A stretch of 64,000 nucleotides of DNA from NCBI GenBank assembly GCA_036172245.1, contig JAYWIR010000079.1:186001-250000 (forward strand), read 5' to 3'. A program made the translations under genes and the position numbers. The notes beneath the pieces were generated by a model that made no database searches, was not told the origin of the DNA, and saw only the letters and a program-made list of their open reading frames with translations. The DNA is from Raillietiella orientalis (Eukaryota). Below, piece by piece: positions 1 to 44,108 of this stretch. Every line of letters starts with the position of its first letter. The first letter of the stretch is position 1.

Positions 1-3000
1 GCGACACGTGGTTCCGGAAGGGCGGCGCGCCCGGGCCACGCGTGCGGCGAAGGCTTGAGGTGGTAAAGGTGGGACGCATAGAGCGAGGCCGGTGCGACGG
101 GCGCAGCGTCGTCTCCCGTCGCTCGCTCGACGGCGGAGTGCCGCTACCGGAAGGGTGGAGCAGCTCCGGGGGGATCCGCGTCTGCTTCGACACGGGGGTA
201 CAGGGAGATGTCCTGGGAATGCGCGGGAGGACCGTCGGGGTGCGCGTTCGGTGGAGCCGCCACGCCGACGCATTCCCGGAAACGCCACTCCCGAGCTCCA
301 GCTATCGAGGATCAGGAGGGAGGAAGAAGAACGGATGTGGAGGCAGCGGCCGCACTCTCGCGGTCGGAATCCCAAGGCGCTGACCGGATAGCTCATCGCA
401 TGCAGCGCTTGCGAAGTCGTGGGAGAGCAGCAAGCACCGGGACGACTCCATGCGAGGGAGGAAGGGCGCTGGGGAGGCCGGAGCAGAAGGAAAAGAAAAA
501 GAAGACGGACGCGGTCGTCCGATGCTCGGATGCAGCGCCGCCTGAAGGAACGGTGTGACCCGCCATCCTCCTCTGTGGGAAGCTCGGAAGCTGCTAATGC
601 GGCTTGCGACAGGACGCGTCTGCGTAACTGGCTGTGGCGCGTGCGCGCGCTCTGGGGGCGGGTGGGAAGAGGAGATGGAGGGATGGGCAGAAAGAGGGTC
701 GAGAAGAAAACGAGAGACGGCCGGAAGTTTCCCTGAAGCGCAGAGCAGTGATCGTGTGATGTGAGAAAAAAGAAGCGGGCGGCGCCTGATGGCCGCCCAG
801 AGGATGGAAATGCGCGACGCGCGCACCCGGATGGAGGACGAGGACGAGGATGGGGAACAAGGGAAAGGGAAGCCGCGAAAAACGGGAAGGGAGGGGAGAG
901 GGGAAGGGAAGGTCACCACCATCCCACCCCGTAACGGGACCGCTCGACGGCGCCGACAAGAAGCGGGCCGCGGGTGCGCTGGACGGCCGGCGGCCTCGTA
1001 TCCATGGAAACCGCGGGAGGCTTTTCCGTGGAAAAGTCTAGGCCGTCCGAGAGGCCTCTTCCCTCGGCCCACCTCTCGTCTTGCCGCGGCCGGCGGGATG
1101 CCCACCTTCCCGAGGCCACGTTCGACCCGGGCGCGATCACGCGGATCCGCGTGCGCCCGCGGGGACGGTGCGGAGGACTTCCTCGCAGTGCCTGGTGGAC
1201 GTCACCATGGTGCTGCTGTCGCTGTCCTCGTCGCCTCCTATCTCGTCTGGAAGGTGCCTCCATCAGAAAGCGGCCTCTGAGAGGGTGAGTGTGCTCCCCC
1301 TTCCCCTTCCTGTGCCCCCCTTCGGTCCGGGGGTGCGTGCGAGAGCTTCCGCTCGCACCCTACTTGCGGCGGGCTGTCCCGGTCCCGGACAAGACGTCCG
1401 GTTGACCTTACCTGCCTTTGGCGGTCGCCTTTTTCCGCTTTTGCCGGGATGCCAAGCTCCGTTCGGGTGGAACGCGCGAGCGCTGCCCGCCTGCCGACCT
1501 GCGACGTCGGCCCTCCGGCCGCGTTGCTGCCGTCCCGGTCGTCCACGAGCTTCGAGGGGTCGACGCCCCTCGTGGGCCACCAGTTCTTGCTGGCTGGCGG
1601 CACCCTCTCTCGGACGTTCGCTGCAGGCGCGGCGCACGACAGGTCATGCGGAGCCGCCCCGAGCGACGGACTGCGTGAAAGATTGGCGATTGAAGGACGG
1701 AGGTGGGCGACAGCCGCGCTCACGCGTCCGCTGCCACCGCCACCAATCCGTCCCGCGGAAGGACACGATGGAGGCTTCCCAGCCCTCGTTCCTGGCCACA
1801 TGCGTTCCACCGATCCCGCCCTTGCTTTCAGGCTCATCCGAGCGACGACGGGTGGGAGGACCCTCGTGCGGAGGCTTCCCCCGGAGTCGACGGCTGCGGC
1901 GACGGCTGTTCCAGGGAGCGGGCCTCCTGCTCCGGAGCTGTAGCCCGAACCTGATCGGAGAGCTGGTCTTCGTCCGGCACGAGAGGAAGACACCGACCCG
2001 CCCGCGACACGCGGGCCCCGGCGGATGACCGGGTGAGGTTGCCATTCCCCGGCCTCGCAGTGCGCCCGCAGGTGACTGGCAAAGCCGCCCTTCGCATCTT
2101 CTCAAGAGGTGACCGGGAGCGCCAGACGTAGGGACGCCTCGCGAGCCCGCTCGTCGAGCTGCGGCAGGCAGGCACTCCTGACGCGCAGCACCGGAGGTGG
2201 GGATGTTGCCCGCCTGCGAAGAAGCTGCGTAGCTCTTCCAGCGCGTGGAGAGGTGTCTGTGCGCGCCGAGGCTCTTTGCCGGATGGGTGCCGACGGATGG
2301 TATGCCATCGCCGGTGCTCGACCTCCCTCGGATGTGCGGGCGGTCGCTGGCTGCTGCCTGCCGCCTGCTCGGGGTGGCTCACTCGTGGGAGGCTGCGCGT
2401 GGGCCGCCGTTTTCCCGCGGTGGGGGAATTCTGCGCTCTCTGAGCCGCGTTCGCCGCTCGCGCAGCAGCTGATAGACTTCTGATAGACCTGCTGTCCTTT
2501 CCCCCTCAGGTGGTTGCCCGGAAAGCTGCAACCAAGCGCCTCGACATGTGCGCCTCCTCAGGGGGTTTTCTTTATTCTGTTCCCTCAGGTTGGCGTCGCC
2601 TGTCCCTGCGGAGAGTCCTGGCCTGCAAGGGTAGGAGGGTGGCTTGGACAGGATCGCGTGGGCTCACGGCAGTTGTGAATCGGCTCACACTGCTTCAAGT
2701 GCGACGCGCGCAGAGTGGGAGGGAGTGCGCGTGTTTCCCGGGTCGCTTGCCAGTTGCCAGGCAGAATCGGGGTCCGGAAGACTTCTTGCGCTCTGGACGG
2801 GAGTATAGTCCCAAGCGGGTGCTGCCGTCGCGACGAGGCAGCACCCACTGGCTCTCTCTCTCTCTCCTCTCTCTCTCTCGCGCAATCCTCCTCCTGCGGC
2901 AGGTGTCGGGAGTCAGGTGGTGAGCATCCCAGCTACGCACGCACTCAAGCGAAAGTGAAAGATTTTTTCCCTCTTCAGATGAGACGAGAAGCTTGGGGAA

Positions 3001-3640
3001 TCGGCGTGTCCGTTGCTGCTCTCGATGCGCTGGCAGTGTTTGGAACTGCTGCTCCCGCGTGGCTGTTCGCCGTGCTGCAAGGAAGAAGAAGGTTCGGGAC
3101 GAGCGAAAGCAAAGCGGTGGTCTGCTTCGGGCCGGGATCGCCCCGAGAGCAATCCTCCCGCCTTTCCTTCGATGTGGTCTCTCGGAGCAATAAATGGATT
3201 GTCCACACTTGCGTTGCCCGCAATGTGTGCTCGCTGGGTTGTGGGTCCGGGATGGGTTGGGGGAGGTGTATTTCAGGAAGACGCGCTCTGTAAAGCACGC
3301 CGCTCTGCAGGGAGAGCGGAGCGTGCGAGTGCAGGACAATGAGGATGGCTTCGCTGCTGCGGCTGCTTGGAGCGATGCTGTACGGCTGCGAGGGAAGGGG
3401 GGCCGTTTGGGCGTGTCCGGTCGTCGGAGTGTCGGCACCAGTGGCGTCTCTTCTTTTCTTGCAGGAGAGTGCGGACCTCGGATTTTTTTGTGGGAGGGAC
3501 TGGAGGCGAGCCTCTGTTGCCGTCGGCGTTGAGATCTCAGGGTTGTGCATCCGGCTAGTTTTCAGTGGGGTGTCGCTAATGGATTTGTTCTCACGTTTGC
3601 GGTACACTTACCAATGTAGGGAATTGTGATGCTGTTAATT
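1..3640 (+). mobile_element. Degenerate non-LTR retrotransposon, L1/Tx1-like (ORF1 remnant + ORF2 endonuclease/RT/C-terminal Zn region), frameshifted
   Basis: GC-rich block with broken ORFs. 'SYRGSGGRKKNGCGGSG' resembles the Tx1 ORF1 YRGQ..C..CG..GH region. 'RRVLACKGRRVAWTGSRGLTAVVNRLTL' resembles the L1 RT thumb (W..R.LS..GR..VN.L). 'RSVKHAALQ' resembles the C-terminal E(S/T)VEH..F.C motif. T-rich 3' tail follows. Motif order fits but all are decayed. Confidence 0.6.
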
Positions 3641-3767
3641 GTTCTGTTTCCATTGTAGGTAATTGTATATTTTTGGGTTTTACGTTTGTCTTTTGCGCTC
3701 TTAAGGTTGTTTTCTTTATTTTCGGCAGTAGTCCGTGGATGTATAGGTCAATTGGTTTGGTGGTTTT

Positions 3768-3987
3768 GTATGCTCCTAACTATCCATTATAACCAAAAAA
3801 GAAATAATGATTACATACCCCATAAACAGTAAACACTTATCATTGAACCTACATGAACAATAAACCCCATTCCATTCCTGCCAACCTTATGAATGATCAC
3901 TCTATTAACACTACCCTACTCCAACAAACAATCCACAAACCCACACTCACAACCATCATCCTAACCAACACCACTCTATAATCCAAA
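3768..3987 (-). pseudogene. nad5: NUMT: 5' part of mitochondrial nad5
   Basis: Strong C/A skew on +. Minus strand in the invertebrate mitochondrial code reads LDYSVVLVSMMVVSVGLWIVCWSSVVLMEWSFMSLAGMEWGLLFM*, then after frameshifts LLFMGYVIIISF and MMDS*EH. This matches the ND5 N-terminus pattern (..MEW....D..SLLFM.FV..IS..V..YS.EYM). Confidence 0.75.
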
Positions 3988-4041
3988 GCCAATAACTACC
4001 TACGATACCAGAAATCATCATTCTCATTAAACTATCTTGGC
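3988..4041 (-). tRNA. trnH: NUMT: mitochondrial tRNA-His pseudogene, T-arm-less (54 nt), anticodon GTG mutated to CTG
   Basis: Minus: GCCAAGA TAGTTTAATGAGAATG ATGAT TTCTGGT ATCGT AGGTAGTTA TTGGC. Acceptor GCCAA/TTGGC, 'TAGTTTAA' D-arm, anticodon stem ATGAT/ATCGT, no T-arm. Lies directly upstream of nad5, as in the common trnH-nad5 gene order. Confidence 0.65.
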
Positions 4042-5500: not shown

Positions 5501-5717
5501 AAGTCTAAAATTGAGTCTAAAATTCAAACCAAAATACTGAATGTGTCTGGAGGCTGAGAAAATAGGGGGGAGTTCAGGATTTCTTCACATTTATGAAACT
5601 AATATAAATTAAAAGTTTGATGAGCATTTCTTGCTTCCCAAGGTGTTGTCAAATCAATCAGCTAAAAGGATTTTATATCGATGTTTTTATGCAAACAACT
5701 GGAGAAACTTTCAAATA

Positions 5718-8700
5718 ATGGAAATCAGTTCTATGAACATCAATAGTTCTAATGAAACCAGTTGCATTATTAAAAATAAAAAAGAGAGCGAATCAAAGTT
5801 TATATTGAAGACACCCAAAGGAACCAGAGATCTCAATCCCCATCAAACAGCAATCAGAGAAAAAGTTTTAGAAAGTATCACAAAATGTTTCAAATTACAT
5901 GGTGGGAAAGCCATAGATACTCCTATTTTTGAACTAAAAGTATGTAGCATGATTCTGTTTTTTGTTTTCTTTTGTTGGCAAAGCAACTTGATTGAAAAAC
6001 TTCATGTACTTGTTTCATTTGTTACTTTCAGATATGAAGAATTTTAAAACATGTTTGCATATTATAAATGTCTAGTTTTTAAATACCACAAAAGATTTGA
6101 ATTTTTAACACATTTAACTCATTCATCATTGGGATTCTAGTTTTTCTTTGATAGATCTGTCTCCATTCTGGATGCATGAAGTTATTTGGAAACCCTCTTA
6201 ATTTCCTAAGATTGATAATAGTATGAGTGAACTTGCATCAGTACACATAATAGTGGTTCTGAAAAGAATTTTGAATCACTTACCAGTTTTTATTCAAAAC
6301 CTCAGATTTTAAATAATATGAATTCACCTTTTTGTTGATATGCAAAATTTCTTCACATTAGACAGACTTTCAAATCTGTTCTGATTATTTTAAATTGAAC
6401 CGTTCAGTAACTGCTTCCCAAGGAATGTCATTGATGGTCGATAGTTTTGCAGATCTGGAATACCTCCTTGTGCATGTAATTTAACATTTGGTAAGCAGAT
6501 AATGTGGATAGTAGTGAGTTAGCCCCTATTTTTATCATTTTAAAGTTCATTTTTCTTCATTGTAGGAAAATTATTTATGAAGTTTCAAAGTGTATTGTGA
6601 ATATGTTAACCCCTTCATTTGCATTTACTGGTTTTTGTCAAAGGCTACTGTTAACATCTGGTGCACTTGTTTTTTGGCAGAAATCAAAATTATTTCAACT
6701 ATTTGGATGAAACTCATTTATTTATAGTCAATTTAGTTGGTATCATTCAGTTTCTTCATTTTTTATATTATGGTTATTTTAGTGTACTTGCTTTCTTAAC
6801 AGAGTTGTGAATTGGTTTTCTGGTGGAGTGGTTTCTGGATTATGTTATATAATTTTATCTATGAACATGCACTGCAACAGCTGCTTTCATTTTTCCAAAT
6901 TTTCTACAGTTTCATTTTTATAAAATCTTATAGTTCCATATGCTAATTTTAATTCCCAGTTGGAAAGCATTTCTGTTTGTTTGTATTTAAACAAGATATT
7001 CTAGAAGACATTATTGTATGCATTGCATTGCAGTTTGTTGACAGGTTGTATGTGACTGTATAAAATAGCAAGAATCTATTTTTTTATATTGTGAAAACAA
7101 ATTTTACCTTTGAAATTCTGGAATTGTTTTCCAGAGTATTGAAGGTCTTTCAGATCTATTCAAAATCTATGTAAATGTTACAATTTGATGTTGCAACAAT
7201 ATCCTAGCACTTGTTAACTTTGTAGTGTCTATAGCTCTGAGAGCCCTCTGTATTTACTTGAGTGAGGTATATTTCATTCACTTCAGGAATAAACTGTAAG
7301 AGAGAATGAGTTGTCTAGTTTCTGAGGTGATATAGTTTATTGTTTTTGAAGATTACCCATATGAAAGCCTCGTGGTGTGGAATCATATTCATGTTGAATT
7401 AACAACTGAATAGTGCCTCTTGTTTGTGTATTTTAGTGCATTGTTATAACACTATTGTTTTTACATATTGCAGTAGAAATCGAAAAAATTATCTACATAT
7501 TATTGATATACTTTTGTGCACATTATTTCAGTGAAATTTCTGTTTTTATTTGTGCAAGTAGGATGAATAGAATAATAACAGTGCTGTTCCATGCCTATGG
7601 TTTCTGAACACAAAAAAATGTGTAAAAGAGTATATCATGATTCTGTATGGATTTTCTGTGGAAAACAGTCATTGGCTCTAGAAAATCACTGGTGAATAGC
7701 ATAATGCAAATGTAAACAAAATGAAATTAATGTGTTGATTGTGTATGTTGACTGAATACTTTAGTTTACTGATGTATACATTTCATTCACAATATTGATT
7801 ACGTTTCATAATTTATTGTATCATAATTGTAAAGATATTACATACAGTGTAAATCAGTGTTCAATAATATATTCCAAATTCCTATTTCCATTTCCAGTAT
7901 TATCTACAAATGTATCTAGAGATGTAAGAGTATCTACTTGTTGGAAAGATTTGGTGTGAATTGTTAGCATGCATTTGCATTCTTAATGTGCATTTGGTTT
8001 TCTTATTTTGACATATCTTAATGTTTTGCATTTGCAGGAAGTGCTTACTGGGAAGTATGGAGAGGACTCTAAACTGATATATGATTTGGCAGATCAAGGC
8101 GGAGAGTTGCTATCATTACGTTATGATCTCACAGTTCCATTTGCTCGCTACTTGGCCATGAACAAGATTACTAATATGAAACGCTATCATATTGGAAAAG
8201 TATATAGACGAGACAATCCGATCATGACCAAGGGTCGCTATCGAGAATTTTATCAGTGTGTATGTTCAGGCATATGGGAAAAATATTTCATGCATTTATT
8301 TCATGAAGGATTTTGATATCGCTGGCAGCTATGATCCCTTGCTCCCAGATTCTGAGTGCATCCGATTAACTTGTGAGGTTTTGAAAGAATTGGGTTTTTA
8401 TAATTTCACGATCAAATTAAATCATCGAGCATTGCTTGATGGTATTTTTCAAGTTTGTGATGTTCCCACTGAACTACTGAGAACTATATCTTCTTCAGTG
8501 GATAAACTAGATAAGGTTATTGAATGACATAAGAGTTTGGATTTGGTCATGCATTATTCTGTAGATGACATGGGAGGAAGTGAAAGAAGAAATGGTAAAC
8601 GAAAAGCATTTGCCTGTTTCTGTAGCAGATCAAATTGGTCATTATGTGAGACAGAAGGGTAGAGAAGATCTCTTGAAGAATTTTCAAGATGACTGCAATC

Positions 8701-9417
8701 TAATGAGCAATCAATGTGCTGTGATGGGAATTAAAGATTTGAGGCTGCTACTCCACTATTGTGAACTCTATGGAGTCAGTGATTACTTGACGTTCGATAT
8801 GAGTCTTGCTCGAGGTCTAGATTATTACACTGGAATTATTTTTGAGGCAGTGTTGTCATCTAATCAAGAAGAAACAGGAGTAGGCAGCATAGCTGGTGGA
8901 GGGAGATATGATGGATTGGTGGGCATGTTTGATCGTAAGGTAAGAATATTTATTTATTCACTATCACTAACAGTTTTTGTAGCAAAAGCAGGTACCATGT
9001 GTAGGTCTTAGTATTGGAATTGAGCGCATTTTTGGCCTTCTTGAGCAGAAGCAGTCCCAGGATACAAGAAGTAGAGCTGATGTGTTTGTAGCATCAGCAC
9101 ATAAAGGTTTGCATGAGAAACGTATGCAGTTGTGCTGCCAACTTTGGGATGCTGGCATTCGTGTATGTACTCATGACAAATTGGAATCCAAGAAATATAT
9201 TAAATTTTCATAGGCGGAACATTCTTATAAACAGAATCCCAAGCTATTGCAGCAATTACAGTATTGTGAAGAGCACAATATTCCTTTGGTGTTAATTATA
9301 GGGGAACTTGAATTGCAGAAAGGGATGGTTAAGCTGCGTCATGTGGCTTCACGTGTTGAGGATGATGTATATATGACTGAACTGATTGAAAAATTGCGTA
9401 AAACCTTGGTCTCTTAA
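5718..9417 (+). CDS. HARS: Histidyl-tRNA synthetase (eukaryotic type), 6 coding exons
   Basis: Exons 5718-5939, 8038-8259, 8309-8515, 8565-8939, 8983-9162, 9214-9417, all GT-AG and in phase. Motifs [71 protein letters not shown] at 9423. True N-terminus uncertain (frame open from 5631). Confidence 0.95.
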
Positions 9418-15949: not shown

Positions 15950-17000
15950 GGAAAGTCACCCATACGGGATTCACCGAAGTAAATCCCGTGTCGTGGCTGA
16001 CGAGGTTAAAAAAAAAAGTTTTATGTGAAATGAAAAAAACAAAAACAAGAAGCAGGTTGCAGAAGAATTTGCTCCTCCTTCGAAAGTGCCGGTGGAAAGC
16101 GGACGAAGAGCAAGGCGGCGCAATAGAAGCTTCAAATCTGCGGGGTTCTCGTAACTGGTTCATACTACATCCTCGTACTGCATACTCATACCAAAGCAGC
16201 TTCCCTATTGCCAAGATCACACCGAGACGATTCTGCGAGACACCACCAATCGCAAAGTCGATGCTTGAGACAGACTAAAAGCAGATCATATCTTCTGCGG
16301 CATGCAGTACAGAGGCAGAAAGCTGAGACCGGAAGCGTAACGATAGCTAAGCATCCAAGACAACTCATCTCAAAGTACTGGTACCAGTATGAAAATCGTG
16401 GAAGCTTTTCAAAAGCATTCCATCCCCACTTCTGGAGACAAGATCTGTGACTGGCGGAATAGAAGGCAAGAGCAGGGAGGAGCAGAAGCATTTGCTTATG
16501 ATTTCTCTTGCTGTACCGTAAAAAAGTATTGAAATAAATTGTATTGGAATGAGTTGCATTGAAAAAAATTCACTCCATGATTGTCGGACTGGGAAAGGTG
16601 GCGGGTGACTTCCCTAGTACCTTTCACGCCCGCATTGGTCAGATGGGCCCCCAAATAACCATTCTTTTATTGACTGACAATATGAGTTTTTTTTTCCCTT
16701 TTTTTATATTGTCAATAGAAGAAGGGTTATTTTTTTTCCTTTGAAAATTGTCAGTGGAATAGGGCACAAATAGTATGCTGGCAAAAGGAAGAGCCGATAC
16801 TGCTTTATACAGCAGATACTGTGTTCGTTACATTCCTTACATTACGTTCCTTACATTTTCAAGTAACGCATGTTGTAACAAAACAAAAAGGCAGGTTAAC
16901 TGATCTGTCTTTGGAAATGGCAATTAGGATCATCAAAAAGAATATTTGTGTATAAAGATCTCTCGAGAGGACCATTTGTGTTGCTAAATGCATGCAAACA
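15950..17000 (+). mobile_element. Degenerate LINE (CR1/L2-like) RT remnant
   Basis: 'GSFSKAFHPH' (DFSKAFD.V.H-like), 'GQMGPQITILLLTDN' (QG..LGP.LF..Y.ND-like) and 'LLYTADT' (LYADD-like) occur in the expected order. Confidence 0.4.
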
Positions 17001-17351
17001 GTTTAACTTTCGCCCGTTTCTATTAAATTACTTTTTCTACGTAAACACTCCTAGCCCTTTCTCAAACGGTTTCGAATCACGTCTTAAACTGTTCAGTGTT
17101 GACACCGAAGAAGTAAAAACTTGCAAAAGAGGTCCAGTTCATTTCTGGACAGACAACTTTAATGGGCGGAAACCAAAATCAAGGAAAACGTACACTGTAT
17201 GCGATGGCCATTCGGATCCATTCGTGAGAACAAACGGATATCAAAAAAATTAGTCTTCCAGTGCATACATTTCTTCAAAGAGAACGTTTTTCAACTACTG
17301 CACATAACTCCTATCCTCTAGGAGTTCATCAGCGAAAGGAGGCGAACCCGT

Positions 17352-20300
17352 TCACTTGCTGACATCTATAAACATCGTCCCCATACCGAACAGTGTTCTG
17401 ATGCTGACTTCATCGCCGGCGTCGACCTCAAAAGTGCTTTCGACCATAGCTGCTGCCTGGTCCCAGTGGGCTTCACTATATGCAGTGCTGATCTGCCCCC
17501 ACTCACTCTCCAGCACAAACCAATACACGAAAGCGTGAACAGTTCCTGGAGTGCACGCTGTTACTAGGTGAGACTTTTCAAACGAAAAGTCTTTTCCAAA
17601 AGACAGCGTGCAAATTTTTGTGGGCAGGGATAGCGGCTTGTGTTCCAAGGTCTGTATCCTCACATGCAGATGCTCATTCACCTGAAAGCAAGGTGGTTAT
17701 TACATACGTTACAAAGGTCAAAAAGGCGACTCTCGCTCCTCCGACTGGTCTGGGTTCATTATGACACACTAGCGGCGCTTACCCACACTCACAGATTAAC
17801 AGAAGATTTGTGAGCAGCAAATAGGGGGAGCAATCGAGCAAGGCTTGGAGTTTGAAAAATAAGAGACGACATCCTCGTAGGGAATGGTACACACGAACTT
17901 CCACGTTAAAACTCTCGCTCGCTTCATGCCAAGATTCGACTTGAAGACAGTCTTTTCGATTTCCATGCACTTCCGCTGTTGGTTACTGCTAGCGAATGGT
18001 GCTCTGCAGATAGTGCTGAAAACCTGAGGAAAGCTGCTGAGACGCGAAGCTGGTTTCTTCCGTACTCTGCCCCTCCCAATAATGCTAAAAGAGATCCTGA
18101 TTTCCCTGTTCACTGCGATTCATTCAATTTTGATTTGTGCTTCCTCTTCCTTTTCCTGCAATCTCAAATGATCGCCCTGAGTGTTTCTGGGGACGCGGCA
18201 GACTTTCAACTTTCGCAGAAACCGAGATACGGAATCATGTTCTTCCAACAGATCTTCTTTGACTCTAATGCCTGAATTCCAGTTTTCCGAGGCAACTAGC
18301 ACGATAGGAGATCAGGGAACACCGCAAGAGTGCTTCGATTTCTTGATGAGAATGGAAAATGTTCAAAAGGAAAATGTTCCAACCTTACTTCCATTGCACC
18401 AAAATTGTTGTGAAAACAATATTTGCTTTGCAAACAAATAACCTCGATTCCCAAACATACCTATAACCAAAAAATGCCAACAGAGTAATGATCGCGACAA
18501 TCACACTGATGAACCCACTTGATGAGATGCAACTCTTCTTCTCAACTTCTAATCTTTAAAAAGCAACTTTCACACTTCAACTCCTATTTCGAAAAGCACA
18601 AAGCATTCCTTCTTTCATACCTTCGATGCTGACTGCCTCCCTGATCTTCCTATTTAGCACGAGCATTACACCCTCTCTGTGTTTCAACTATAATACTTCA
18701 TCTTCCTGGATGAGTATTTGAACCCAAATCCGAAGCATTGTTTCCATTTTCCATCCAAGTCTTGATTGCTTATTTTCGATGTTCACTTGGCCATCATCCC
18801 GCCTCGAGAGCACACGAAATCCCTTATAGTGCAACGCTACTAACGGCCTTTCCTAGGGTGCTCGCTTCAACCAGAGACTGCGCAGGAAAGACGATTCCTC
18901 ATCCGAATTTACACGGCCAGAGGGAGTAAGATGCACTCCATCCCCCCCCTTTTTTTTTTGTTCCTACATATCTCCCCAACGCGCTGATACCAAGGAGTTT
19001 GAGAGCACGGAATACCGATTTGCACCAGTGCAAGACCAATCAAGCATCTCTCCCTGAAGAAAAGGGAAACTTTAGCGCCTTCTCATTAATCGAAATCGGT
19101 TCGAGGGCAGCAGCAAGGAAATGCAGAACCACGAGAGTCGACTCCTGTATCTTCCAACCCGGCTGTTTCCTTATGGCGCGCCTCTTCAAATTCTTCGAAT
19201 TCTCCGCCGCTTTCATTCCTCATTGCCTTTGGAAACAGACCGTCCTTGCGTCTCAGCAGCGATTCAAAGACCCACAAGTCACACTTGGCAGAAGAAAGAG
19301 CAATAGTTCATGCACGACCTCGGTGGTAAGCCAATGTCTCCTGAACACTGGAGTGCTGCTGCATGAACATCTCGCTGTCTGGACACTCATGATCATGACT
19401 CGAAATTTCCTCGAAAGTTCTTGTGGTGCATAGTTTTTAGCGTTAAGGATGTTTGTTTGCATCTATTCAGCGTCAGGTTCCGCCTGTTGCCTGGAACCCA
19501 AAAAGGATCGTCGCCACGCAATGTCCCTCTTGCATTCCAAGAGAAAACAGAGGTGCGGAGGCGAGAAACCGACGGTTTCCAGAGAGCACAAACCGCAAAA
19601 AGAGCAATGCCGGAGCAGCCATCTACACTCTTCACGCGTGCCCGAAGTCGACTGGGATATGCACAGAGCCTGAACTCGTGGAACCCGATCCTTGCGGTCA
19701 TCCGAGAGACCAGCCGGTCCGTTTTCCCCACTTTGCGCTCGAGGCTCCAACAGGGAAAAAGGAAAGCTCCAAAAGAAATATCCATCCGAAGGCAGATCTT
19801 GTAGTTCATGCTGCCTGTCTCTGTTGATCAGTTTGTGGACACACCCGCGGCGTGTCTCGAAGGAATCGTCATCCTGATAGGTCCTCGAGCAACCTACGTC
19901 GCAGTCCACGCACGCCGCACTCGAAAGAAATCCATTTCCTATTCCTCTCCGGAAGCGAAACCACCCCGTTTGCCAAGGTTGGAACAAAGTTCTGGTGACA
20001 GAAATGCTGCAGCTGCGCAAGAAACTAGAACCCCCCTTCCCCCGCCTTTTCGGTTCAGCCGAAGGAGGAATAGCAAAAAGTTCGGCAACAGAAGTAGGAA
20101 CCCGCGCAGTTCGAGAAGTTTCGGCGGACGACATCCTACTCAACTACTCACGAAGAGACGGGTGAATCAAAGGGTTGCAAGGAAAGGCAATCGGCACTAG
20201 CGCTGCCTACTACGAAGTAACGAAAAAACCGGAAAAGAGGGAGGAGGAACAAATGAGAAAGGATACTGGTAGTGGGCAATAGCGACAGATGCATCCCAGA

Positions 20301-23300
20301 ATGGAGATGGTGCGATCATGACAACGGCTTTCGCGTTTTTTGAGCCGCATTACGCTGTCAAGGCCCTACTCAAACTGAACGAATTCCCTTCTCAGCTTCG
20401 GCAGGCATGCACGCCGCCCTTAAGTTCCGAGGTCACAGCGATGGAGCGAGCATGACTGTGTCCGCCCGTTTGCGGTCTCCTCGGACGCCTCCGAAGGGCT
20501 TGCCACGCACAACTTCTTACTTTATATTCGTTTAGGTACGGTGCTATAGAGAAGCCCAGGGTTCTGCTGTGGTCGCCCATGAGACGGTTCCACTCCATCA
20601 GACGCTCGCACTGGACCAGAATCCCTTCCAGGTGCACAAGACTCGGTATGACCAGCCTCGGGTTCCAGAGCATGACAGCGCTAGGGGTGCCGGGAGGTGA
20701 TACAGGCGGTGGGGCAGGGAAGAGTGTACTCCCATTACCTAGCAACAGCAGACCATCTCTCCATCGACAGAACCCCCGACGGGTCGACGGGGTCTGCCAC
20801 CACAACATCGCAACGATCTGTGGGGGCGTCGCGGAGGATCGGTCGCTGCGGTTGATCCTCCCTCCCGAGCAGGCGGAAGCACGCATCCAGCGTGTCTTCA
20901 GAACACTCTGCGTGCAAAGAAGCGGGGACACCCGACAGCACGGCGAACAGAGAAAGTGAGGGAACCGGGCCGATGTCCAAGAGGGTGTCGCCTGCCTTCA
21001 GGAAGGAGATGGCATTTCGAAGCCAAAAGTTCCACAGATCATCATTCAGGGAGTGCAGGTAGGAGGGATCAAGACCGCCCTCATCACCACCACTCCCCTC
21101 ATCCAACAGTCTGATGCAGTCGTCCACGACCTCAAAGGCCAGGTCCGTCGATGAGCCTGACAGGACGGGTTCGCTCCGGGCAGGGAAAATCGCTTGCTGC
21201 CAGGTTGTCCCGTGAGCCGTGTCGACTGACATGCTCTCGCACAGATCCAGTCGGAACCATGCCACGGTGGCGTCCCAGGAGCCTCCAGAGGAGAACGTCA
21301 GACGGGCAGAGGCATGGAAGCCACTCTTCAGCCGCGACATCTGTGCGTGGTCGCCGAAGTCTACCCGGAGGAGAGAGGCCGGTGGACCGAGGAAAGTGAA
21401 TCCACCAGGCAGGGTGTCGAGGTGCTCGCAGTCGTAGGGTTCGCGGAAGCGCGCCCTGACGGTGCCCGGGAGCAGCTTGGACGTTGACCGGTAGCGCCGC
21501 CGCAACGCTGAGCACTCGACTGGCGCAACGGACAGAACGGCTCCTTGAGGGATGACCCGCCCCCCAGGCTTCAGGAGGTTGGATAGGGCGTGGTACATGG
21601 TGCTTACTACCCCTTCTCCGAAGAGCGCTGCGTCGAAGACCTCGGTCACGATGAGGTCAACCCTGCCAGGCGAGTGAAGGAGCACGTGGATCATAGCAGC
21701 CCCTGGTCCTCCCCTCCCCCCCTTCGGAACCATTTTTAGCTCACCTGGAAGGTATATCCTTCCCGATGACCAGCTCCGACGAGTCCTTGCCGAGGAAGGT
21801 GATCTTCTGCTCCAGACCATTGGCGCGGAAGATGCGCCCGCAAAGACCTGCAAGCACCGGGCAGCGCTCGCAGCAGTAGACGGCCTTGGCGCCAGCCTTG
21901 GCGGCGACCATGCTGGGAAGGAGAAAAAGACGCTGGTAAGAAAAGAGGAAGAGGGGAGAGCAAGAGCTTGGTTGAGAGCCGGAAGAGGATCGCATGGACG
22001 CATGCGCAGAAGCGCATGTGTGCAGATGAGTGCTCACGCGCCCACCCAAACGGGCGAATATGCGTGCCAGAGCTACGGGGTCTGAATCGAGGAGAGAGCC
22101 CTGCAGTCTGAGCGCTCACTGTTGCTCACCTGAGGATCCCCGATCCAGCGCCGATATCGAGGACGGTGGTCTCGCCAGCCTGGACGTGCCGGAAGAGGGC
22201 ACTTTGGAAGGCGCTGTTCCTGCCAGCGTCGTTGAGCATGGGGAAGTGCCATCTGGCAACAGAGCAGAGCTTGACGCCGGCCAGGTTGGAGCGGGCCGAG
22301 ACGCAGGAGGGGTCTGCTTGGATGGCGAGCAGGAAGCTGTCCCTGGCATCCTCCAGGTCGCTGCGCCTGCGGGACAAGGGACAGGGGGAGGGAAGGGCGT
22401 TCAGAGGGCCACCACACCGAGGGCGACGCTCTCGGAACGCACACGCAGACGCAGCCCGCGGCGCGTGAGCGGCACCCGCAGGGCGTGTAGGCCGTCTTCC
22501 CATGCGCGGAGTGATGCCTGCGCGGCGTCCATGCATTCGCCCGCGGGCACAGTGAAGGCGGAAACCTCGTTCCAGGCAGCCTCCTCCTCCTGGCTACCGG
22601 AAGCTGCGTGGGCCATGGCGACTGAGTGGCGCACAGCTTGTGTGTGATCCAGGCAGTGGGTGCCATCCGCATCCGGGCGATACACGACTGGATAACCGAG
22701 CAGCAAACCAAAAACGGTGGTGGCGCGGCAGGCCGGGGAGCAGGCCGCGGCCACGTCATCGTCGTCACCTCCTCCGCCACGAAAGCACTTTGCCGCCAGC
22801 CACCTTTCCAGCCGGCGCACCGCGTCCAGCAGGCCATCGTCGTCGCCCGGGTTAACAACTTGGGGGCGCCCACCAGAAGGCACGTCCACGAAGGTCACCC
22901 TCCGCGGTGCTTCGCGTAACCACCTCAGCGCGCAGGCCACGTCCACCACGACGAGGTCTCCGGCGCAGCGGAGCACTTCAACGGAGGCTCCCTCCTTCCG
23001 CGCCCACCCTCGGAGCTGCTCCGGCAGGGCTGGGAAGAGGTCCCACACGAAGCCTGGCTTCACGCCCGCCCGAAGCGACTCCAGAGACCAAGAGGCCTGC
23101 CGGAGATGTCTCCTCCGACTTCTGCCGAAGATCCCCTCCCAGTGGCCCAAATCTCCCAGGAGGTTGCCGTCCGCCGTTGCCATGTTTACCTCCACGACCA
23201 CAGTCCGAGCGCGTTCCAAAGACAGGCGCTCGCAGGGAAGACGGTCAAGGCCGCGCGCAGGGCTCCTGAGGGATCTCCGCCGTCGGCATCTCCTTCCGTC

Positions 23301-23533
23301 CACTTGGCTGCAGGAGCACAGAGACGAGGAGAAGATGGGCGCGAAAGTAGGATGGAGCAAGGGGCAGGGTAAAACTCACCGAAAGCGTTTTCGAAGCGCG
23401 GCTGAAGAACAGGAACCAGAGACGGTTCGTGAATACAGGCAGCCAGCATCCACGCGCAGGCGCGTCCGTACTCACCGCCGCCGAGTAGCGCCTCCGTCCG
23501 CGTGAGGATTTCTTCGTCGGACTCGGAGGTCAT
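17352..23533 (-). CDS. PRMT9: Protein arginine N-methyltransferase 9-like (TPR + duplicated methyltransferase modules), 7 coding exons
   Basis: Exons 23533-23380, 23307-23190, 22366-22130, 21912-21745, 21662-20739, 20680-20521, 17681-17352, all GT-AG and in phase. Motifs RWHFPMLND..RN, VLDIGAGSGILS, VDLIVTEVFDAALFGEG, EPYDCEHL, WQQAIF, AFVYWF, HWDQAA. TPR-like N-terminus. Confidence 0.9.
17750..18950 (+). mobile_element. Degenerate Gypsy-like pol remnant in PRMT9 intron 6
   Basis: 'IRDDILVGNGTHE' (YxDDILV.G.T.EEH-like) near 17860 followed by 'DPDFPVHCDSFNFDL' (RNase H F.V.CDAS-like) near 18100. Confidence 0.5.
19400..20150 (-). mobile_element. Second degenerate Gypsy-like RT remnant in PRMT9 intron 6, opposite orientation
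   Basis: ORF 19463-20143 contains 'TGWFRFRRGIGNGFLSS...RTYQDDD' (G.FRF.RLPFG..SS / YQDD RT motifs). Confidence 0.5.
22401..23183 (-). CDS. C1orf74: UPF0739 protein C1orf74 homolog (DUF4504 family), intronless, 260 aa, nested in PRMT9 intron 2 on the same strand
   Basis: Intact ATG-to-TGA ORF. Colinear matches to human C1orf74 as recalled: GVKPG (GLKPA), FVDV, TVFGLLLGYPVVY (TVFGILLGYPVPY), HCL (NCL), SAFTVP (YSFSVP), AWE (TWE), C-terminal SESVALGVVAL* (SEIVTLPAVAL*). Confidence 0.88.
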   Translation of the reverse strand: MATADGNLLGDLGHWEGIFGRSRRRHLRQASWSLESLRAGVKPGFVWDLFPALPEQLRGWARKEGASVEVLRCAGDLVVVDVACALRWLREAPRRVTFVDVPSGGRPQVVNPGDDDGLLDAVRRLERWLAAKCFRGGGGDDDDVAAACSPACRATTVFGLLLGYPVVYRPDADGTHCLDHTQAVRHSVAMAHAASGSQEEEAAWNEVSAFTVPAGECMDAAQASLRAWEDGLHALRVPLTRRGLRLRVRSESVALGVVAL

Positions 23534-38389: not shown

Positions 38390-41300
38390 TCAAAATCTCC
38401 TCAATTCATTCATTATGAGATCAACGAAATCGGATGGATCAGACTGATAAGATATTGCTGATTTGATGACGTCATCAAAAAGCTGAAATAGCATGTTGCG
38501 AACGAATTATTTTGATGAAAACTATTTTCAGAATACACATGCATTAGACTCATAAGCTAAAATTCTTGAGAAATCCCCACCGAATGCATTCTCAATTGCC
38601 TTGTTTCAATACAAAATATATCTATGACATGATATGCGCATGCAAGCTTATTGAAGGGCTGATTAAGTGAGAATTTACTGAAATACCTTACGAATGATGT
38701 AACTGTTCATGTTTTGCTTATTCACGTTATTGGTTTGGGTTAAACCACAGCAATCCTAATCAATTAAAAAGGCAGACAGGACCCATACCGATTATTTTTG
38801 GGCAAATTTTGAAAAATTCGTCACTTTTTCTACGTAATGATTTCTTAATATAATAGCTTCATAAACATCTCTCTGTGAATCTCAAGTTAAATCACATATT
38901 AATTTTTTTAAAGAGTATATGCAATTGTAGCATTTCTGCTTCTGACAAACAGAAGCACCTCAACATATGTATTTTTGCAATGTTTTTTTTTTCCTGTTCC
39001 CTATAATCCAGAAAACATGCGAACTCTGTGAATCGATTTGTCCTTTGCATTTCAAAATGCACCCTCCACCTCTTACTGCACCTATTTCCCTGTAAGCGGT
39101 GCAATTCTACATACATCCTAAATGACTTTCTTCAAACGTAAGTTTTGTTCTAATTTAAAGAAGACAGTGAGAAGGTGCCATGTAGAGAACCTACCACTGT
39201 GCTGCTGCATTAGAACACGGCCGTTTCAAATAAATATCCGATACAACAAATCAGAGAAACGCAATAAGATTTCAGGAGACACTAGAGTGTTGTAACTTAA
39301 AAACCAAGAGCAAAGCAATTGAAGCAAGCCATCGAGAATACAAAAAAAAAGAAAAGAAAAGAGAGCTCAAATCTCGAACTGGGCATGGCCAGGAGGATTA
39401 AATCCAAACTGCCACTGCAAATACTTCAGGGTACGTCCTCTGTCTCCGGGAGCAGTACCACTAAAGAAACCATTAAAATGCGCAAAAGCAAATTTTAGAG
39501 CAACGGATCAAGCGTATGCATTCATACTGAAAATTCTTCCTTGTCGTCATACGGAAAAAAACATCAAGAAGGTAAGCTCAAAAAGGATCATCTGACGAAT
39601 ATTTCGTCAGTAACCAACGAATGAGTTCGTAAAGAATATTTTCATCATTCCATCACCGTTTAATCATCCAACCATGGAACGTTGTCGAACATGGCAAACA
39701 AGTCAACAACACAAGAAAAAAGTGGAGCTTCGGTATGGAACAAGTGCTTAAGAATAACAGCTATTGCTAGAAAATATAGTTCCGAAATAGGTATCAAATT
39801 TTTTTGTTTTTTAACATAAAAGAAGCTTGTTAAATAGTATAAGTTCGCTAGGGCAGCCAGATTCAGATTTCCGATTTCCAGGCGAAATTTTTTTCAGCCA
39901 ATTTTTTCAATGTTATCGTTTCAACTGCTGCACAAAAGCCTGCAAAATGGACGCTAATGATTTGCTGTTAAAAGTCACAATAGATGCAGGTCGATAACAT
40001 CAACGAGAAATCCTTATTAATCTTTCCACTGATTCTTATTTTGACCTTCAGTCTTGAAGAATCCACGCTGTTTCTATCACCGTTTTTTCATTAACCACGA
40101 CAGAAACAGACAATCATCTGACTCTTACACGACTACTCTTCTTGATTTCCATGATGAATACAGAGCAAAATGAAAAGTTAAAATCCATTTGGCGACATAT
40201 ATAAATAAGCAGAAAAAATTAAAATCCTCAGCAAAAAATCAAGAATTCCTGATTTCACGAAACATTAAAATCAACAGCTGCTTTATTCATTTGGCACTTC
40301 AATTTCAACCGATGAATAACGTTCAGATATTCCAATTTTTCAAATGAATTATAAAATTATCGAAAATTAAAAGTCATACGAATACACAGGCTCAGAACGG
40401 ATGGAAACTGTTGAGGAGCTCATCTCATGTTTAAAAAACCTAGGCAATGATGCAACTTTCTTGGAGCACGTAAGCCTCGTGGTGGAAGTGGATGATAACG
40501 ATCTAAGATGAAGCCTGCAATCCGGAATTGCTTGAATTTACCTAAATGATTAACCGATCTATGAAACTTCTTCGATTTGGAACAGCATCGTTAAAAAACA
40601 GAGATATTGAAAACCTGCCTCTGAGTCATTTACAGAACATTATAGTGCTTTATAAAGCCATACTTGAAAATGTGCGCACCATCACACATGATATTCATGC
40701 ACTTCATCACAATCATTCGTCTCTTATACAAATATATGCTCTGTTGCTTCCATCCTATATATTCTTATGCTCATTTCCTTCCTCGATAATCACCTCGAGT
40801 TAATTAGAAAACTTTATGAAAACTAAATTAATGAAAACCACTTTATGGTCACATCTGGATGTTTCAGCACTGTAATATATAATACAAAAGAGAAAAAATT
40901 TCGAGCCCATTTTTGGTTCTTTTTCTTTAGGCATGAATAAGATTTGCAGGGAGAAAAAGCGATTTTTACCTCTGTAACATTGGTACCATCTGCAGCGGAA
41001 ACATAATGAAGAGCCAGTAAATTCTTCATCGCGAACCGGAAAGTTTTTCGAACGCTTGCCGGATTTGCTAATACAGAGGAGGAATAAAAAGTGATTACTA
41101 GGTGGCCATTTGCCGTTGTGAATCAATTGCATTCATGATTTTTCATACATGGAACCTTCGACTGATCGATGATGCTCAGTTCATTCAATAGAGTGAATCA
41201 CTCTGCGCATTTTTCGATTTTCGGATACTCCGCAATGATTCGCGCAAATGCTACTCATAGATACAAAATCATCCAAGATCTCAAAATGACTTGGAGGGTA

Positions 41301-44108
41301 TAAGTGGACGAATGTGAGGAATGCGGTGAAGTATTTGCACACATACCATCAATTTTATTCGCTGCACACAGGCAAGGGATGCTAGGACGGCATTTGCGCA
41401 AGTCTTGATACCACTGAGTCAGATTTTTGTAGCTGCTCTTTTCAGTAACATCAAAAACCATAACGCAAGCATGTGCAAGAAAAAAGAATGCGCGATGGAG
41501 ACGACGGTACTTGAGGCTTCCACTGACATCCCAGAAAACTGAAATAAAGATAAGTTTAACCGAATTCAGATAACCTTAAATTGCTTAAATTTCAGGCAGG
41601 TTAAAAAAAAAAAAAACCGTGGAAAACCACGTCTTCAGAGAACAGTTACTGGATTAGTAATGGGTCAGTAATGTAATATTTGTGAGAAATCGAGCATGAC
41701 ATAATTTAATATCTGCCTGAAATTTAGCAGTCTGCATGTCCACCATCACGCAAATTGTTACTTATTAACATCTTATTACTCGACATACCTGGACGAAAAG
41801 TGCTTTGTGTTAAGAAGCGCTAACGGTCATTTACTATTTTACGAAATACCAATCCAAAATGAAAATTGCAAGCTCACTTGATTTATTTATTTATTTTATT
41901 TGCGGTCCTTTTCGGGATTAATGGAGGAATGAACATTGGTAATTTAAAAACATGATCCGGTCATAACATTCATGATATTGCTACAGTTTGGAGTATCATC
42001 ATCATCAATTGAACCAGACAATCTGAATGCCAATGACTACTAGGCATTTATAGAAGACTTCCTTCACGTGAATACGGAAGAGATCCAAAGCAATATGAAT
42101 GCCTGTGAATCATTGCTAAACAGCAAAAAGACTCAAAAATGGTAAAAGAGGAAGCAAACTCGAGAGCCACCTGGTTTCCTATGTCTTCGACATAAATTAG
42201 TACGAGAAATGAAACATTCACATGGTAATTTTTGATGGAATATTCAGCTCAACAAATCCGAGGATAAATCGAAAAGAGAACAAAAAGAACCTATGTAAAA
42301 AGAGAACATGAAGCTTCTCAGCCGCATTCAAAAACTTTTTTAATATCTGCCACTTTTCTAACAGAGAACACACTTTTATCAACTGATACACTTACACTAT
42401 CGTAAGCAAAAGCACGACGAGAATATACAGACTATTACTTGGTGAAATTTCTCTTACTGTAAACATTACATCCACCAATTCCAAAAGCTTTGAACAGAAA
42501 TTGCATGCTGCAATTTCGGATAACATTCCTCTAATCTCTTAATCAGTGTTCCAAGTTTAAAGTTTCCAAGAAACGAAAACTGTTCCATACGTTACTTTCG
42601 CTTGAAATATTCATCAGAGTAATTTCGATTTCACAAGGAGTGTTAGCTTAATTTCCAGTTAACCGAATTACTGATACCGTGTGCTGCCGCATCTAATCAC
42701 GTCACCTCATTTAAACAGCAGATCATGAGGTACCGAGCTTAATTACGCACAAGGTGGTACAAAACAACATCAGTGCAATATGGTGTTGAAGCCTTCAATT
42801 AATGATTTGGTATTTAATTTGTGATTACAGAATTTCAGTTATTTACAAAGACTGGCTTTTCATCCCTTAATCTACGTATGTGACCACTTATACGAGCATT
42901 TTTCTATTTAGCCTCCTTAAATGATTAGTTTCTCCCTGAATTAATTACTCAAATTAAACACAGAAAGTATAAATGTAGTGGAACATAATTCGGGCCATGG
43001 AACTACATATCTACATGAATAAAATAGCTTTCGGCTTGGAAATTAGCAATCATAAACTTTTCTTTTGCGTATCTCAATTGCTTTCAGAGCCAGCCAAGAA
43101 CAAACATAACGTTTCAAACTGTTTTCCAACTCTGCATGTGCACAACTAAGGTCAAAAGAAAAGATTTGTAAGGAATAAAACCAATGAATGCGTTTAACAA
43201 AAAAAGATCAGTAAAAAGTGCATTAGTAGCTTTTACTTTTTTTGAACACATAATTGTCATGCCAAGATGTACAGTCGAAATGTCAGGAAATTTGGCACAT
43301 TACAAAAGAGGACTCCCCGATTCTTTATTCCGTTCCTCTTTCAATCCTAAATGTAAGTTCCACGAAATGAACTGACTACCTGAATGAAATAAAAAAAAAG
43401 GCTAAGCCGTCAAGTTTTACGTTAAACTATACCTTTTTTTACTATCAGACATGAAAAGTACTTAAGAATTAAAAGTAAGATCAAACACTTTATCAGTGCA
43501 TCAGTTTTCTAGTATTGGGCTGCTGTCTATCGCTTATCCAAGAGCTCACTGTAAGCCAAATGTTTTTGGTCATAAGGATGTCATTACACAATCAAAAAAA
43601 AAGATTATTTGAAATGAACGTCCTTTCGTTTTTCTACAATTAAAGTGGGGAGGAAAATGAAACGAAAAAAAAAAAAAAAAAAAAATCAGAAGTTTTGAAC
43701 TCAAACTCAACAACTCTATCTGAATCTCCAAACAATCTGTTCACAGCAAACGTCTAAAATACCAAATGCTTAATAGAGAAGAAATTTTTCACGAATTATT
43801 TCGAGGTTTCCATTTTACCCTTAGGCAATGACACTTTTCTAGCTACTGACGGATCGTCAACTAAACTTGGGCCATCCTATAGAAGCCATCGTAAAACTTA
43901 CCAATTGGTACGTGTCCGTGTAGATATGGATATGTTGCAACCCCTTCTGTAGGACAGCATTCGACAGGAGTGCCTTTGCTAACGAATGTTTGTAGCAGCC
44001 TAAAAGTACATCTCGCGTTTACAATAAGCCTTGTGCTCACTTCGTTTTCCCAACTCCTTCGTCGCCTATAAACAAGACTTTTACTTTGGGATTCATTTTG
44101 CTCACCAT
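38390..44108 (-). CDS. RABL2: Rab-like protein 2 (RABL2)-like small GTPase, divergent, 5 coding exons
   Basis: Exons 44108-44041, 43999-43902, 41538-41347, 41067-40970, 38482-38390. GDEGVGKT, FWDVSG, AHACVMVFDV..KSSYKNL..WY.DLR..RP.IPCLCAANKID, YVSAADGTNV, LFDDVIKSAISY...DFVDLIMNEL are colinear with RABL2. No CAAX box. Start could be 44108 or 44096. Confidence 0.88.
41582..41730. repeat. Short inverted-repeat-bounded element (MITE-like) in RABL2 intron
   Basis: TAAATTTCAGGCAG (41586-41599) and its exact reverse complement CTGCCTGAAATTTA (41713-41726). Confidence 0.4.

Follow-up and report, generated by a model that had tools for sequence, protein, structure and literature searches.

In the cholinergic gene locus, the open reading frame (ORF) of VAChT (unc-17) is a single exon located in the first intron of ChAT (cha-1), a gene on the same strand (PMC3053374). 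The locus uses multiple promoters and alternative splicing, and it is kept in nematode, fly and mammals (PMC3053374). Here, we analyze a nested arrangement in a stretch of 64,000 nucleotides (nt) from Raillietiella orientalis (contig JAYWIR010000079.1, positions 186,001 to 250,000), which is hereafter called the window and whose own numbering is used throughout. In this window, intron 2 of a PRMT9 gene carries, on the strand of its host, an intact ORF of the DUF4504/UPF0739 (C1orf74) family. A viral example of one RNA serving two proteins is segment 8 of influenza A virus, in which the unspliced mRNA gives NS1 and the spliced mRNA gives NEP, two proteins with a common initiation codon and N-terminus.

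Nested genes have also been described more generally in flies and mammals. In Drosophila, 71% of them lie on the strand opposite to the host gene and ~29% on the same strand, and 72.5% of the same-strand genes have a single exon, which fits selection against mis-splicing (PMC3814207). In mouse and human, both orientations are broadly similar, and 5' introns are preferred (PMC11694760). The first-pass annotation of the window had stated that most nested genes are antisense, which agrees with the figure for Drosophila but not with the mammalian data. Activity of a nested gene can also alter the processing of host transcripts via intronic polyadenylation, as reported for the H13/Mcts2 retrogene locus (PMC13309782).

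The C1orf74 literature found in our search deals mostly with expression in cancer; the papers that carry the name in their titles report expression or signalling correlations in cancer, and one of them calls the function of the protein unknown. In this study, we carried out sequence, profile and structure searches with the inner ORF and with its host gene. We conclude, at a probability of about 0.65, that PRMT9 intron 2 contains a functional single-exon DUF4504/UPF0739 gene on the same strand, and that this intron has been pared down to splicing signals and coding sequence (CDS).

Results

Composition of PRMT9 intron 2

Re-reading of the minus-strand sequence confirmed, to the base, all coordinates given in the first-pass annotation (Table 1). 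Intron 2 opens with a 5' splice site of 6 nt, continues as an intact ORF of 260 codons, and closes with 34 nt that comprise a pyrimidine tract and the CAG acceptor. With the stop codon counted, 783 of the 823 intron nt (95%) belong to the ORF, which leaves a non-coding remainder of 40 nt. In an RNA that keeps the intron, the frame of PRMT9 reads AG-G TAA and stops, and the inner ATG follows 2 nt further in the context AAC ATG G, with the optimal A at -3 and G at +4. As claimed previously, the inner ORF lies on the PRMT9 coding strand within a GT...AG interval. Removal of this interval gives one frame of 696 codons that continues through five further junctions.

The donor GTAAAC is the sole one among the six donors of the gene that departs from GTRAG at position +5, and it differs from GTRAGT at +6 as well; the weak signal of intron 2 is its 5' end. 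Adenosines are scarce at the other end of the intron. Its last 63 nt contain only three, at 22401, at 22400 and in the terminal AG, and no yUnAy branch motif occurs at branch-point distance. Because the first two are the only adenosines at that distance, a normal branch point must sit on the stop codon of the guest, and the region contacted by SF3b (6-25 nt upstream) coincides with the last codons of the guest. By its GT...AG ends, its tract, an A at 18-40 nt and the restored frame, intron 2 would be classified as a U2-type spliceosomal intron.

As had been noted in the first-pass annotation, neither a promoter nor a poly(A) signal could be accommodated in the intron, and the paucity of signals extends beyond it. 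A scan for 18 variants of the poly(A) hexamer found none on the minus strand from 22400 to 20529, i.e., for 1.87 kb past the nested stop codon. The first canonical hexamers, ATTAAA at 17163 and AATAAA at 16671, are located beyond the PRMT9 stop codon.

Family assignment of the inner ORF

The ORF had been assigned to the UPF0739/C1orf74 family from its sequence, and Pfam and HMMER searches bear out this assignment. In Pfam, residues 37-233 align with positions 26-229 of the 255-position DUF4504 profile (PF14953) at 30.5 bits (E 3.3e-7), above the curated gathering cut-off of 25 bits. Among 1.84 billion representative proteins, phmmer identified 14 matches at E <= 1e-3, none of them at E <= 1e-10. 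Three of these (P0001, P0002 and P0009) were dropped as tandem-repeat artefacts, and the other 11 share the conserved motifs of the family; they include a sea urchin protein (P0008) that is named 'UPF0739 protein C1orf74 homolog' at NCBI. A profile made from the 11 homologues, with the window ORF excluded, matched the nested ORF at 125.8 bits (E 6.7e-38; profile positions 12-250 of 250), a result that is not fully independent, as the homologues themselves were found using the nested ORF as query. Among the 566 six-frame ORFs of at least 50 amino acids (aa) in the window, this profile matched the nested ORF alone.

The conserved positions of the family are largely kept. Of the alignment columns conserved in the 11 homologues, the nested ORF retains 7 of the 8 invariant ones, 11 of the 13 shared by at least 10 sequences, and 17 of the 22 shared by at least 9, and its misses are conservative replacements (L to V, L to A, S to A, and S to T). 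In an end-to-end alignment (A1), its first Met and its stop codon align with the N and C termini of the family. AlphaFold2, supplied with a 12-row alignment, gave a mean predicted local distance difference test score (pLDDT) of 82.9 and a predicted template modelling score of 0.83. The GC content at the three codon positions is 0.75/0.535/0.75, with the minimum at position 2, as in the PRMT9 exons. Judged by these features, the nested ORF is a complete DUF4504/UPF0739 member without sign of decay.

Marks of a recent or mobile origin were not detected. Among 11 short repeat families, no direct repeats lie at the intron ends, and the 34-nt tail holds 2 A's and no A-run, so the marks of a processed retrogene are absent; neither terminal inverted nor terminal direct repeats, as expected for a mobile element, occur at the intron 2 boundaries. 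A self-splicing group I or group II intron was rejected: the whole window has 0 Rfam matches at gathering thresholds, and the ORF encodes DUF4504 and no homing enzyme. No tRNA genes are present in the window.

Additional searches gave little on the protein itself. A word-indexed protein search with the nested ORF had no matches, and Foldseek comparison of the nested protein with PDB returned nothing at E <= 1e-3. The best hit of a wide VIA-align search with this protein, to an R3H domain (76 residues, root mean square deviation 4.5), had a Z score of 5.1, which is below the level common for unrelated folds. In a language-model Atlas search that left PF14953 aside, the nearest clusters were unnamed Chlamydiota proteins (0.84-0.86, with 182-190 shared features); we regard this as a lead only.

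The host gene

When the seven exons are joined by their coordinates, they give 2091 nt and 696 codons from the ATG at 23533, with zero internal stop codons, and all six introns of the model are of the GT-AG type with pyrimidine tracts. This open frame is a strong internal check of the model, since an error at a junction would almost certainly break it.

Similarity to PRMT9 is clear in the central exons. The 422-aa ORF at 20735-22003, which covers exon 5, matches the PRMT9 chains 7rbq_A and 6pdm_A at E 2.2e-19, compared with 1e-8 for PRMT7, and its double-E loop region aligns residue for residue with solved PRMT9 chains. Exon 3 matches residues 103-175 of the PRMT9 chain 8rbk_A at E 4.3e-11 and human PRMT9 (6pdm_A) at 5.3e-10, while PRMT7 is reached at 1.1e-5; its S-adenosylmethionine-binding motif I is also aligned residue for residue with the solved chains. 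The second methyltransferase-like module has weak matches to 7rbq_A (domains 2-3), and the last exon matches Pfam PRMT_C at 26.7 bits, just below the cut-off of 27. Word-indexed searches for longer proteins with exon 5 and exon 3 as queries had no matches.

The assignment of exons 1-2 to PRMT9, which is the weak point of the model, is suggested by the splice geometry, the open spliced frame, and features resembling tetratricopeptide repeats (TPRs). A weak TPR match of exon 2 is non-significant (PEX5-related protein, E 0.79). Among the ten best language-model neighbours of exons 1-2 that have a family, 10 of 10 belong to TPR families, at low recognition and at a level that a third of shuffled proteins also reach. 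The peptide across the exon 2/3 junction agrees with 7 of the 8 positions (W4 L7 G8 A20 F24 A27 P32) of the classical TPR consensus, and this fit depends on the join between the two exons.

Mutual exclusivity and proposed expression

The geometry of the locus makes the two proteins mutually exclusive in each RNA, as the first-pass annotation had proposed: the TAA in the donor stops PRMT9 if the intron is kept, and the inner CDS is gone if it is spliced. Because the intron extends only 6 nt ahead of the inner AUG and 34 nt past the inner stop codon, the mRNA for the inner protein must include the entire splice-competent intron and be an intron-retention isoform. This rule applies to any such mRNA with a leader of more than 5 nt and a trailer of more than 34 nt.

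We propose the following mode of expression. Upon splicing of intron 2, the RNA would encode the 696-aa PRMT9, and the inner CDS would be lost with the lariat. If the intron is kept, the PRMT9 frame would end at the donor TAA, and the RNA could encode the DUF4504 protein from the next AUG. Transcription of the inner mRNA would most likely start in the shared CpG-rich 5' region, probably in exon 2 downstream of 23289, which would place the inner AUG first. The weak GTAAAC donor would let part of the transcripts escape splicing, and the 3' end of the inner mRNA would lie far downstream, in PRMT9 sequence.

Table 1. Features of the PRMT9 locus and of other genes in the window. A slash marks an exon-intron boundary.
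Feature	Positions	Strand	Description
PRMT9 exon 1, coding part	23380..23533	-	ATG at 23533 is the first after an in-frame stop; donor TCG/GTGAGT
PRMT9 intron 1	23308..23379	-	72 nt; GTGAGT to ...CTCCTGCAG with pyrimidine tract; open in frame if retained
PRMT9 exon 2	23190..23307	-	TPR-like; 3' end ...TGG AG
Upstream ORF (uORF) in exon 2	23245..23289	-	14 codons; out of frame with PRMT9; last AUG ahead of the inner AUG
PRMT9 intron 2, host of the nested gene	22367..23189	-	823 nt, phase 2; donor GAG/GTAAAC, acceptor ...CCCTTGTCCCGCAG/G; PRMT9 frame open once removed
5' splice site hexamer GTAAAC	23184..23189	-	TAA at 23188-23186 ends the PRMT9 frame (ORF 23186..23533) upon intron retention
Nested DUF4504/UPF0739 (C1orf74-family) CDS	22401..23183	-	260 codons and TGA; ATG at 23183-23181 is intron nt 7-9
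Two adenosines at branch-point distance	22400..22401	-	at -35 and -34 relative to the acceptor; 22401 belongs to the nested stop codon
Polypyrimidine tract and CAG acceptor	22367..22399	-	the 34 nt at 22400-22367 have 19 C and 8 T (27/34 pyrimidines)
PRMT9 exon 3	22130..22366	-	end of TPR region and methyltransferase motif I
PRMT9 intron 3	21913..22129	-	217 nt
PRMT9 exon 4	21745..21912	-	from reading of the sequence; within the open spliced frame
PRMT9 intron 4	21663..21744	-	82 nt
PRMT9 exon 5	20739..21662	-	double-E loop, remainder of module 1 and beginning of module 2
PRMT9 intron 5	20681..20738	-	58 nt
PRMT9 exon 6	20521..20680	-	ends in AATATAAA
PRMT9 intron 6	17682..20520	-	~2839 nt; donor AAA/GTAAGA, acceptor ...CTTTCAG/GTG
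PRMT9 last exon and stop codon	17352..17681	-	stop at 17352-17354; closes the 696-codon frame
Histidyl-tRNA synthetase gene	5613-9417	+	short introns, 30-39% GC, CpG observed/expected 0.12-0.45
Ras/Roc-type small GTPase exons	41258-41575	-	Pfam scan
Anoctamin gene	47236-53610	-	five Anoctamin matches and a dimerisation domain

Other features of the locus and its surroundings

Several additional features of the intron and its host were observed. The first poly(A)-like hexamers past the nested stop codon are in AATATAAA, located at the exon 6/intron 6 boundary (20521-20528, minus strand), and a short isoform could arise there by intronic polyadenylation. The nested ORF and the uORF in exon 2 begin with 14 nt (23170-23183 and 23276-23289, respectively) that are identical at 12 of 14 positions (repeat family D8), a similarity that may be due to chance. 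The G-rich first 70 nt of the intron (23120-23189) can pair with the polypyrimidine tract (22367-22406) at -39.4 kcal/mol, a value reached by 4% of 300 shuffles. Pairing of the intron ends was dismissed as a special feature, since interior windows reach -41.6 kcal/mol. Trans-splicing just upstream of the inner AUG was also considered and, by reading of the sequence, judged unlikely: the sole AG there is formed by the last two bases of the exon, and no pyrimidine tract precedes it.

The base composition of the window is uneven. The PRMT9 locus region has 60-67% GC and a CpG observed/expected ratio of ~0.9-1.0, and most of the rest of the window has 30-45% GC. Within PRMT9 (17352-23533, minus strand), GC falls in the 5'-to-3' direction, with a GC content at third codon positions of 0.69-0.83 in exons 1-6 that drops to 0.55 in the last one. 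The nested ORF is in the high-GC regime. The contrast in CpG between the histidyl-tRNA synthetase gene and the PRMT9 locus resembles a mosaic signature of gene-body methylation. Together with the short introns and the genes present, this mosaic indicates an invertebrate animal. The first part of the window (1-4000) has 58-68% GC, a CpG observed/expected ratio of ~1, and many ORFs of 100-330 aa in all six frames, which had no matches in Pfam.

DUF4504 homologues in metagenomes

A metagenome scan with P0020 identified two short contigs (L001 and L002) with a distant DUF4504 homologue, and a scan with the homologue P0004 had no matches. The homologue in L001 reaches 111.5 bits on the Pfam DUF4504 model. 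Across these contigs (L001:54-1478 and L002:2-1236), on one strand, a PurA-like ORF is followed by a 15-nt spacer with an acceptor-like TTTCAG and then by the DUF4504 homologue. Further on, a spacer of ~120 nt with AATAAA and an acceptor-like TTTTAG precedes an ORF similar to 2-oxoglutarate/Fe(II) oxygenases. This layout may reflect a polycistronic transcript, as in an operon or in a system similar to spliced-leader trans-splicing.

Discussion

In this work, we describe a PRMT9 intron that consists almost entirely of the CDS of a second, unrelated protein. We infer that the inner gene is expressed because it is intact and because its 783-nt ORF has been protected while the non-coding part of the intron has been trimmed to 40 nt. 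The anatomy of the locus, the families of both genes, the intact state of both reading frames and the geometric exclusivity are shown; expression of the inner gene, the start and end points of its transcripts, and the factors that set the ratio of spliced to retained RNA are inferences.

Several observations weigh against a functional inner gene in this position. In transcripts from the PRMT9 promoter, the inner AUG would be preceded by three others (23533, 23449 and 23289), and both reinitiation after a uORF of ~90-115 codons and leaky scanning past three AUGs should be inefficient; for this reason, we favour a start in exon 2 downstream of 23289. The retained-intron mRNA would have a 3' untranslated region (UTR) of at least 1.9 kb with further splice junctions, which in many animals would make it a target of nonsense-mediated decay. 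When the 2-kb region was simulated 500 times with a Markov-1 model, 9% of the runs gave an ORF of at least 260 codons that starts with ATG in one of the six frames, and several ORFs of more than 250 codons overlap the nested ORF in other frames. The length of the nested ORF alone is not beyond chance; it is homology that lifts this ORF above chance. The closest homologue is ~31% identical overall and is too distant for an analysis of synteny or of the ratio of nonsynonymous to synonymous substitution rates. In the sole other genomic context examined, that of L001 and L002, the DUF4504 homologue is not in PRMT9, and the nesting is therefore lineage-specific or at least not universal. Finally, the first-pass annotation had described the spliced product as colinear with the TPR region of PRMT9. 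Sequence searches show this from exon 3 on, where 8rbk_A is matched from residue 103; exons 1-2 have no PRMT9 sequence match and none of significance in PDB, and their single-sequence fold is all-helical and of low confidence (pLDDT 52.4).

Some of these points would be accounted for if the inner ORF were silent. A DUF4504 copy, whether duplicated through DNA or RNA or relocated as a gene, may have arrived in the PRMT9 intron, where it is spliced out and degraded so that PRMT9 is the sole product, and its frame would still be open since it is young and since stop codons are rare at 67% GC. The chance-compatible length of the ORF, the long open frames on both strands, the lack of private promoter, UTR and poly(A) sequences, and the absence of nesting in L001 and L002 are all in line with this explanation. 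It is nevertheless unlikely in our view, as the ORF keeps 7 of 8 family-invariant columns, has conservative replacements in the next tiers, and is full length from the Met to a conserved C-terminal tail, with a confident predicted fold, coding-type GC periodicity in its own frame and an optimal AUG context. It carries neither a poly(A) remnant nor a target-site duplication. In addition, a neutral insert of 783 nt should erode, and the other short introns of the gene are 58-217 nt long; a non-coding remainder of 40 nt is what is expected if dispensable DNA was deleted while the ORF was protected. An error in the gene model is a far less probable explanation. In that case, the sequence upstream of 23189 would be the leader of an ordinary DUF4504 gene, PRMT9 would start downstream, and the two would be tandem neighbours. 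The lack of a significant PRMT9 match for exons 1 and 2 is compatible with this model, as is an ATG at 22536 that is in frame with exon 3 and lies within the DUF4504 CDS. A PRMT9 that starts there, however, would begin in the middle of a repeat and lack most of the TPR region, and its CDS would still overlap that of DUF4504. The model also leaves aside the canonical, in-phase donor and acceptor, the 696 codons that are open from 23533, and the 34-residue TPR that is completed by the exon 2/3 join, with 7 of 8 positions of the consensus. The family-bearing neighbours of the exon 1-2 ORF, 10 of 10 of which are TPR proteins, point in the same direction, with the reservation that a third of shuffled proteins match that.

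A more specific possibility, raised in the first-pass annotation, concerns the regulation of the locus. PRMT9 methylates SF3B2, and through the use of intron 2 by the U2 small nuclear ribonucleoprotein (snRNP) and its SF3b component, it could adjust the ratio of PRMT9 to DUF4504 mRNA. The locus would then act as a binary splice switch, with the stop codon of the guest as branch point and its last codons as SF3b anchoring site, and PRMT9 would feed back on the choice between itself and DUF4504. This idea is coherent with the geometry of the locus. Methylated R508 of SF3B2 contacts the anchoring site, and PRMT9-dependent events are characterized by weak features at the 3' splice site and by anchoring sites that depart from the consensus (PMC10984984). 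Intron 2 has branch-point candidates only at the nested stop codon and no yUnAy motif, and its anchoring site must fall in the last ~8 nested codons, which are constrained by the conserved tail of the protein. On the other hand, the 3' splice site otherwise looks strong (27/34 pyrimidines and CAG), the weak element is the donor, which is not read by SF3B2, and the mouse data concern cassette exons rather than intron retention (PMC10984984). We consider the feedback model improbable, both as an autoregulatory loop and as a switch of the kind outlined.

If the inner gene is expressed, as we favour, the locus would represent an unusually clean natural intron-retention switch between two unrelated cellular proteins, operating without private regulatory sequences. 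Its donor would double as a stop codon, its branch site would be the stop codon of the guest, and the SF3b anchoring site would lie in CDS, so that the locus could be used as a compact reporter for the decision between splicing and retention. It would also provide an initial way into the biology of the C1orf74/UPF0739 family, which is uncharacterised, and suggest a link to PRMT9 that can be tested; the main substrate known for PRMT9 belongs to the U2 snRNP. Should the feedback switch prove true, the function of the C1orf74 family would be tied to splicing or arginine-methylation homeostasis. Even a silent ORF would be a useful case of a gene-sized insert tolerated in a gene with short introns.

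How does this locus compare with those described previously? Like other same-strand nested genes of Drosophila and mammals, it has a single-exon guest in a 5' intron. Typical nested genes are independent transcription units in long introns, whereas the DUF4504 guest fills 95% of its intron and abuts both splicing signals; because of this occupancy, it cannot be an independent unit. At the H13/Mcts2 locus, Mcts2 is served by a CpG-island promoter and a poly(A) site of its own, neither of which would fit into PRMT9 intron 2, and hallmarks of a retrocopy are absent from that intron. Segment 8 of influenza A virus is similar in that a weakly spliced intron decides which protein is made and coding is maximally compact. 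Unlike the products of this viral RNA, whose genome is under extreme size pressure, PRMT9 and the DUF4504 protein share no residues, and the upstream frame ends at the donor TAA. The surroundings of the PRMT9 locus are also not compact, in contrast to the viral cases, as genes in the window lie tens of kb apart.

Among specific precedents, the cholinergic locus comes closest; as in PRMT9 intron 2, a whole single-exon ORF is located there in an intron of a same-strand host. In that locus, the intron is long and contains VAChT-specific promoters and UTRs, and both proteins act in one pathway. In contrast, the non-coding flanks of PRMT9 intron 2 measure 6 nt on the side of the inner AUG and 34 nt on that of the stop codon, which leaves the guest without a private promoter or 3' end. 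We know of no functional link between DUF4504 and PRMT9. In our literature search, no paper mentioned C1orf74 and PRMT9 together, and a search for precedents among retained-intron, bicistronic and nested genes returned general reviews only. The arrangement had been thought undescribed; this holds for the gene pair in the literature searched but not for the general layout, which is known from VAChT in ChAT (PMC3053374). Same-strand nesting with alternative processing is already known, and the features that set the PRMT9 locus apart are its extreme packing and the pair of genes involved.

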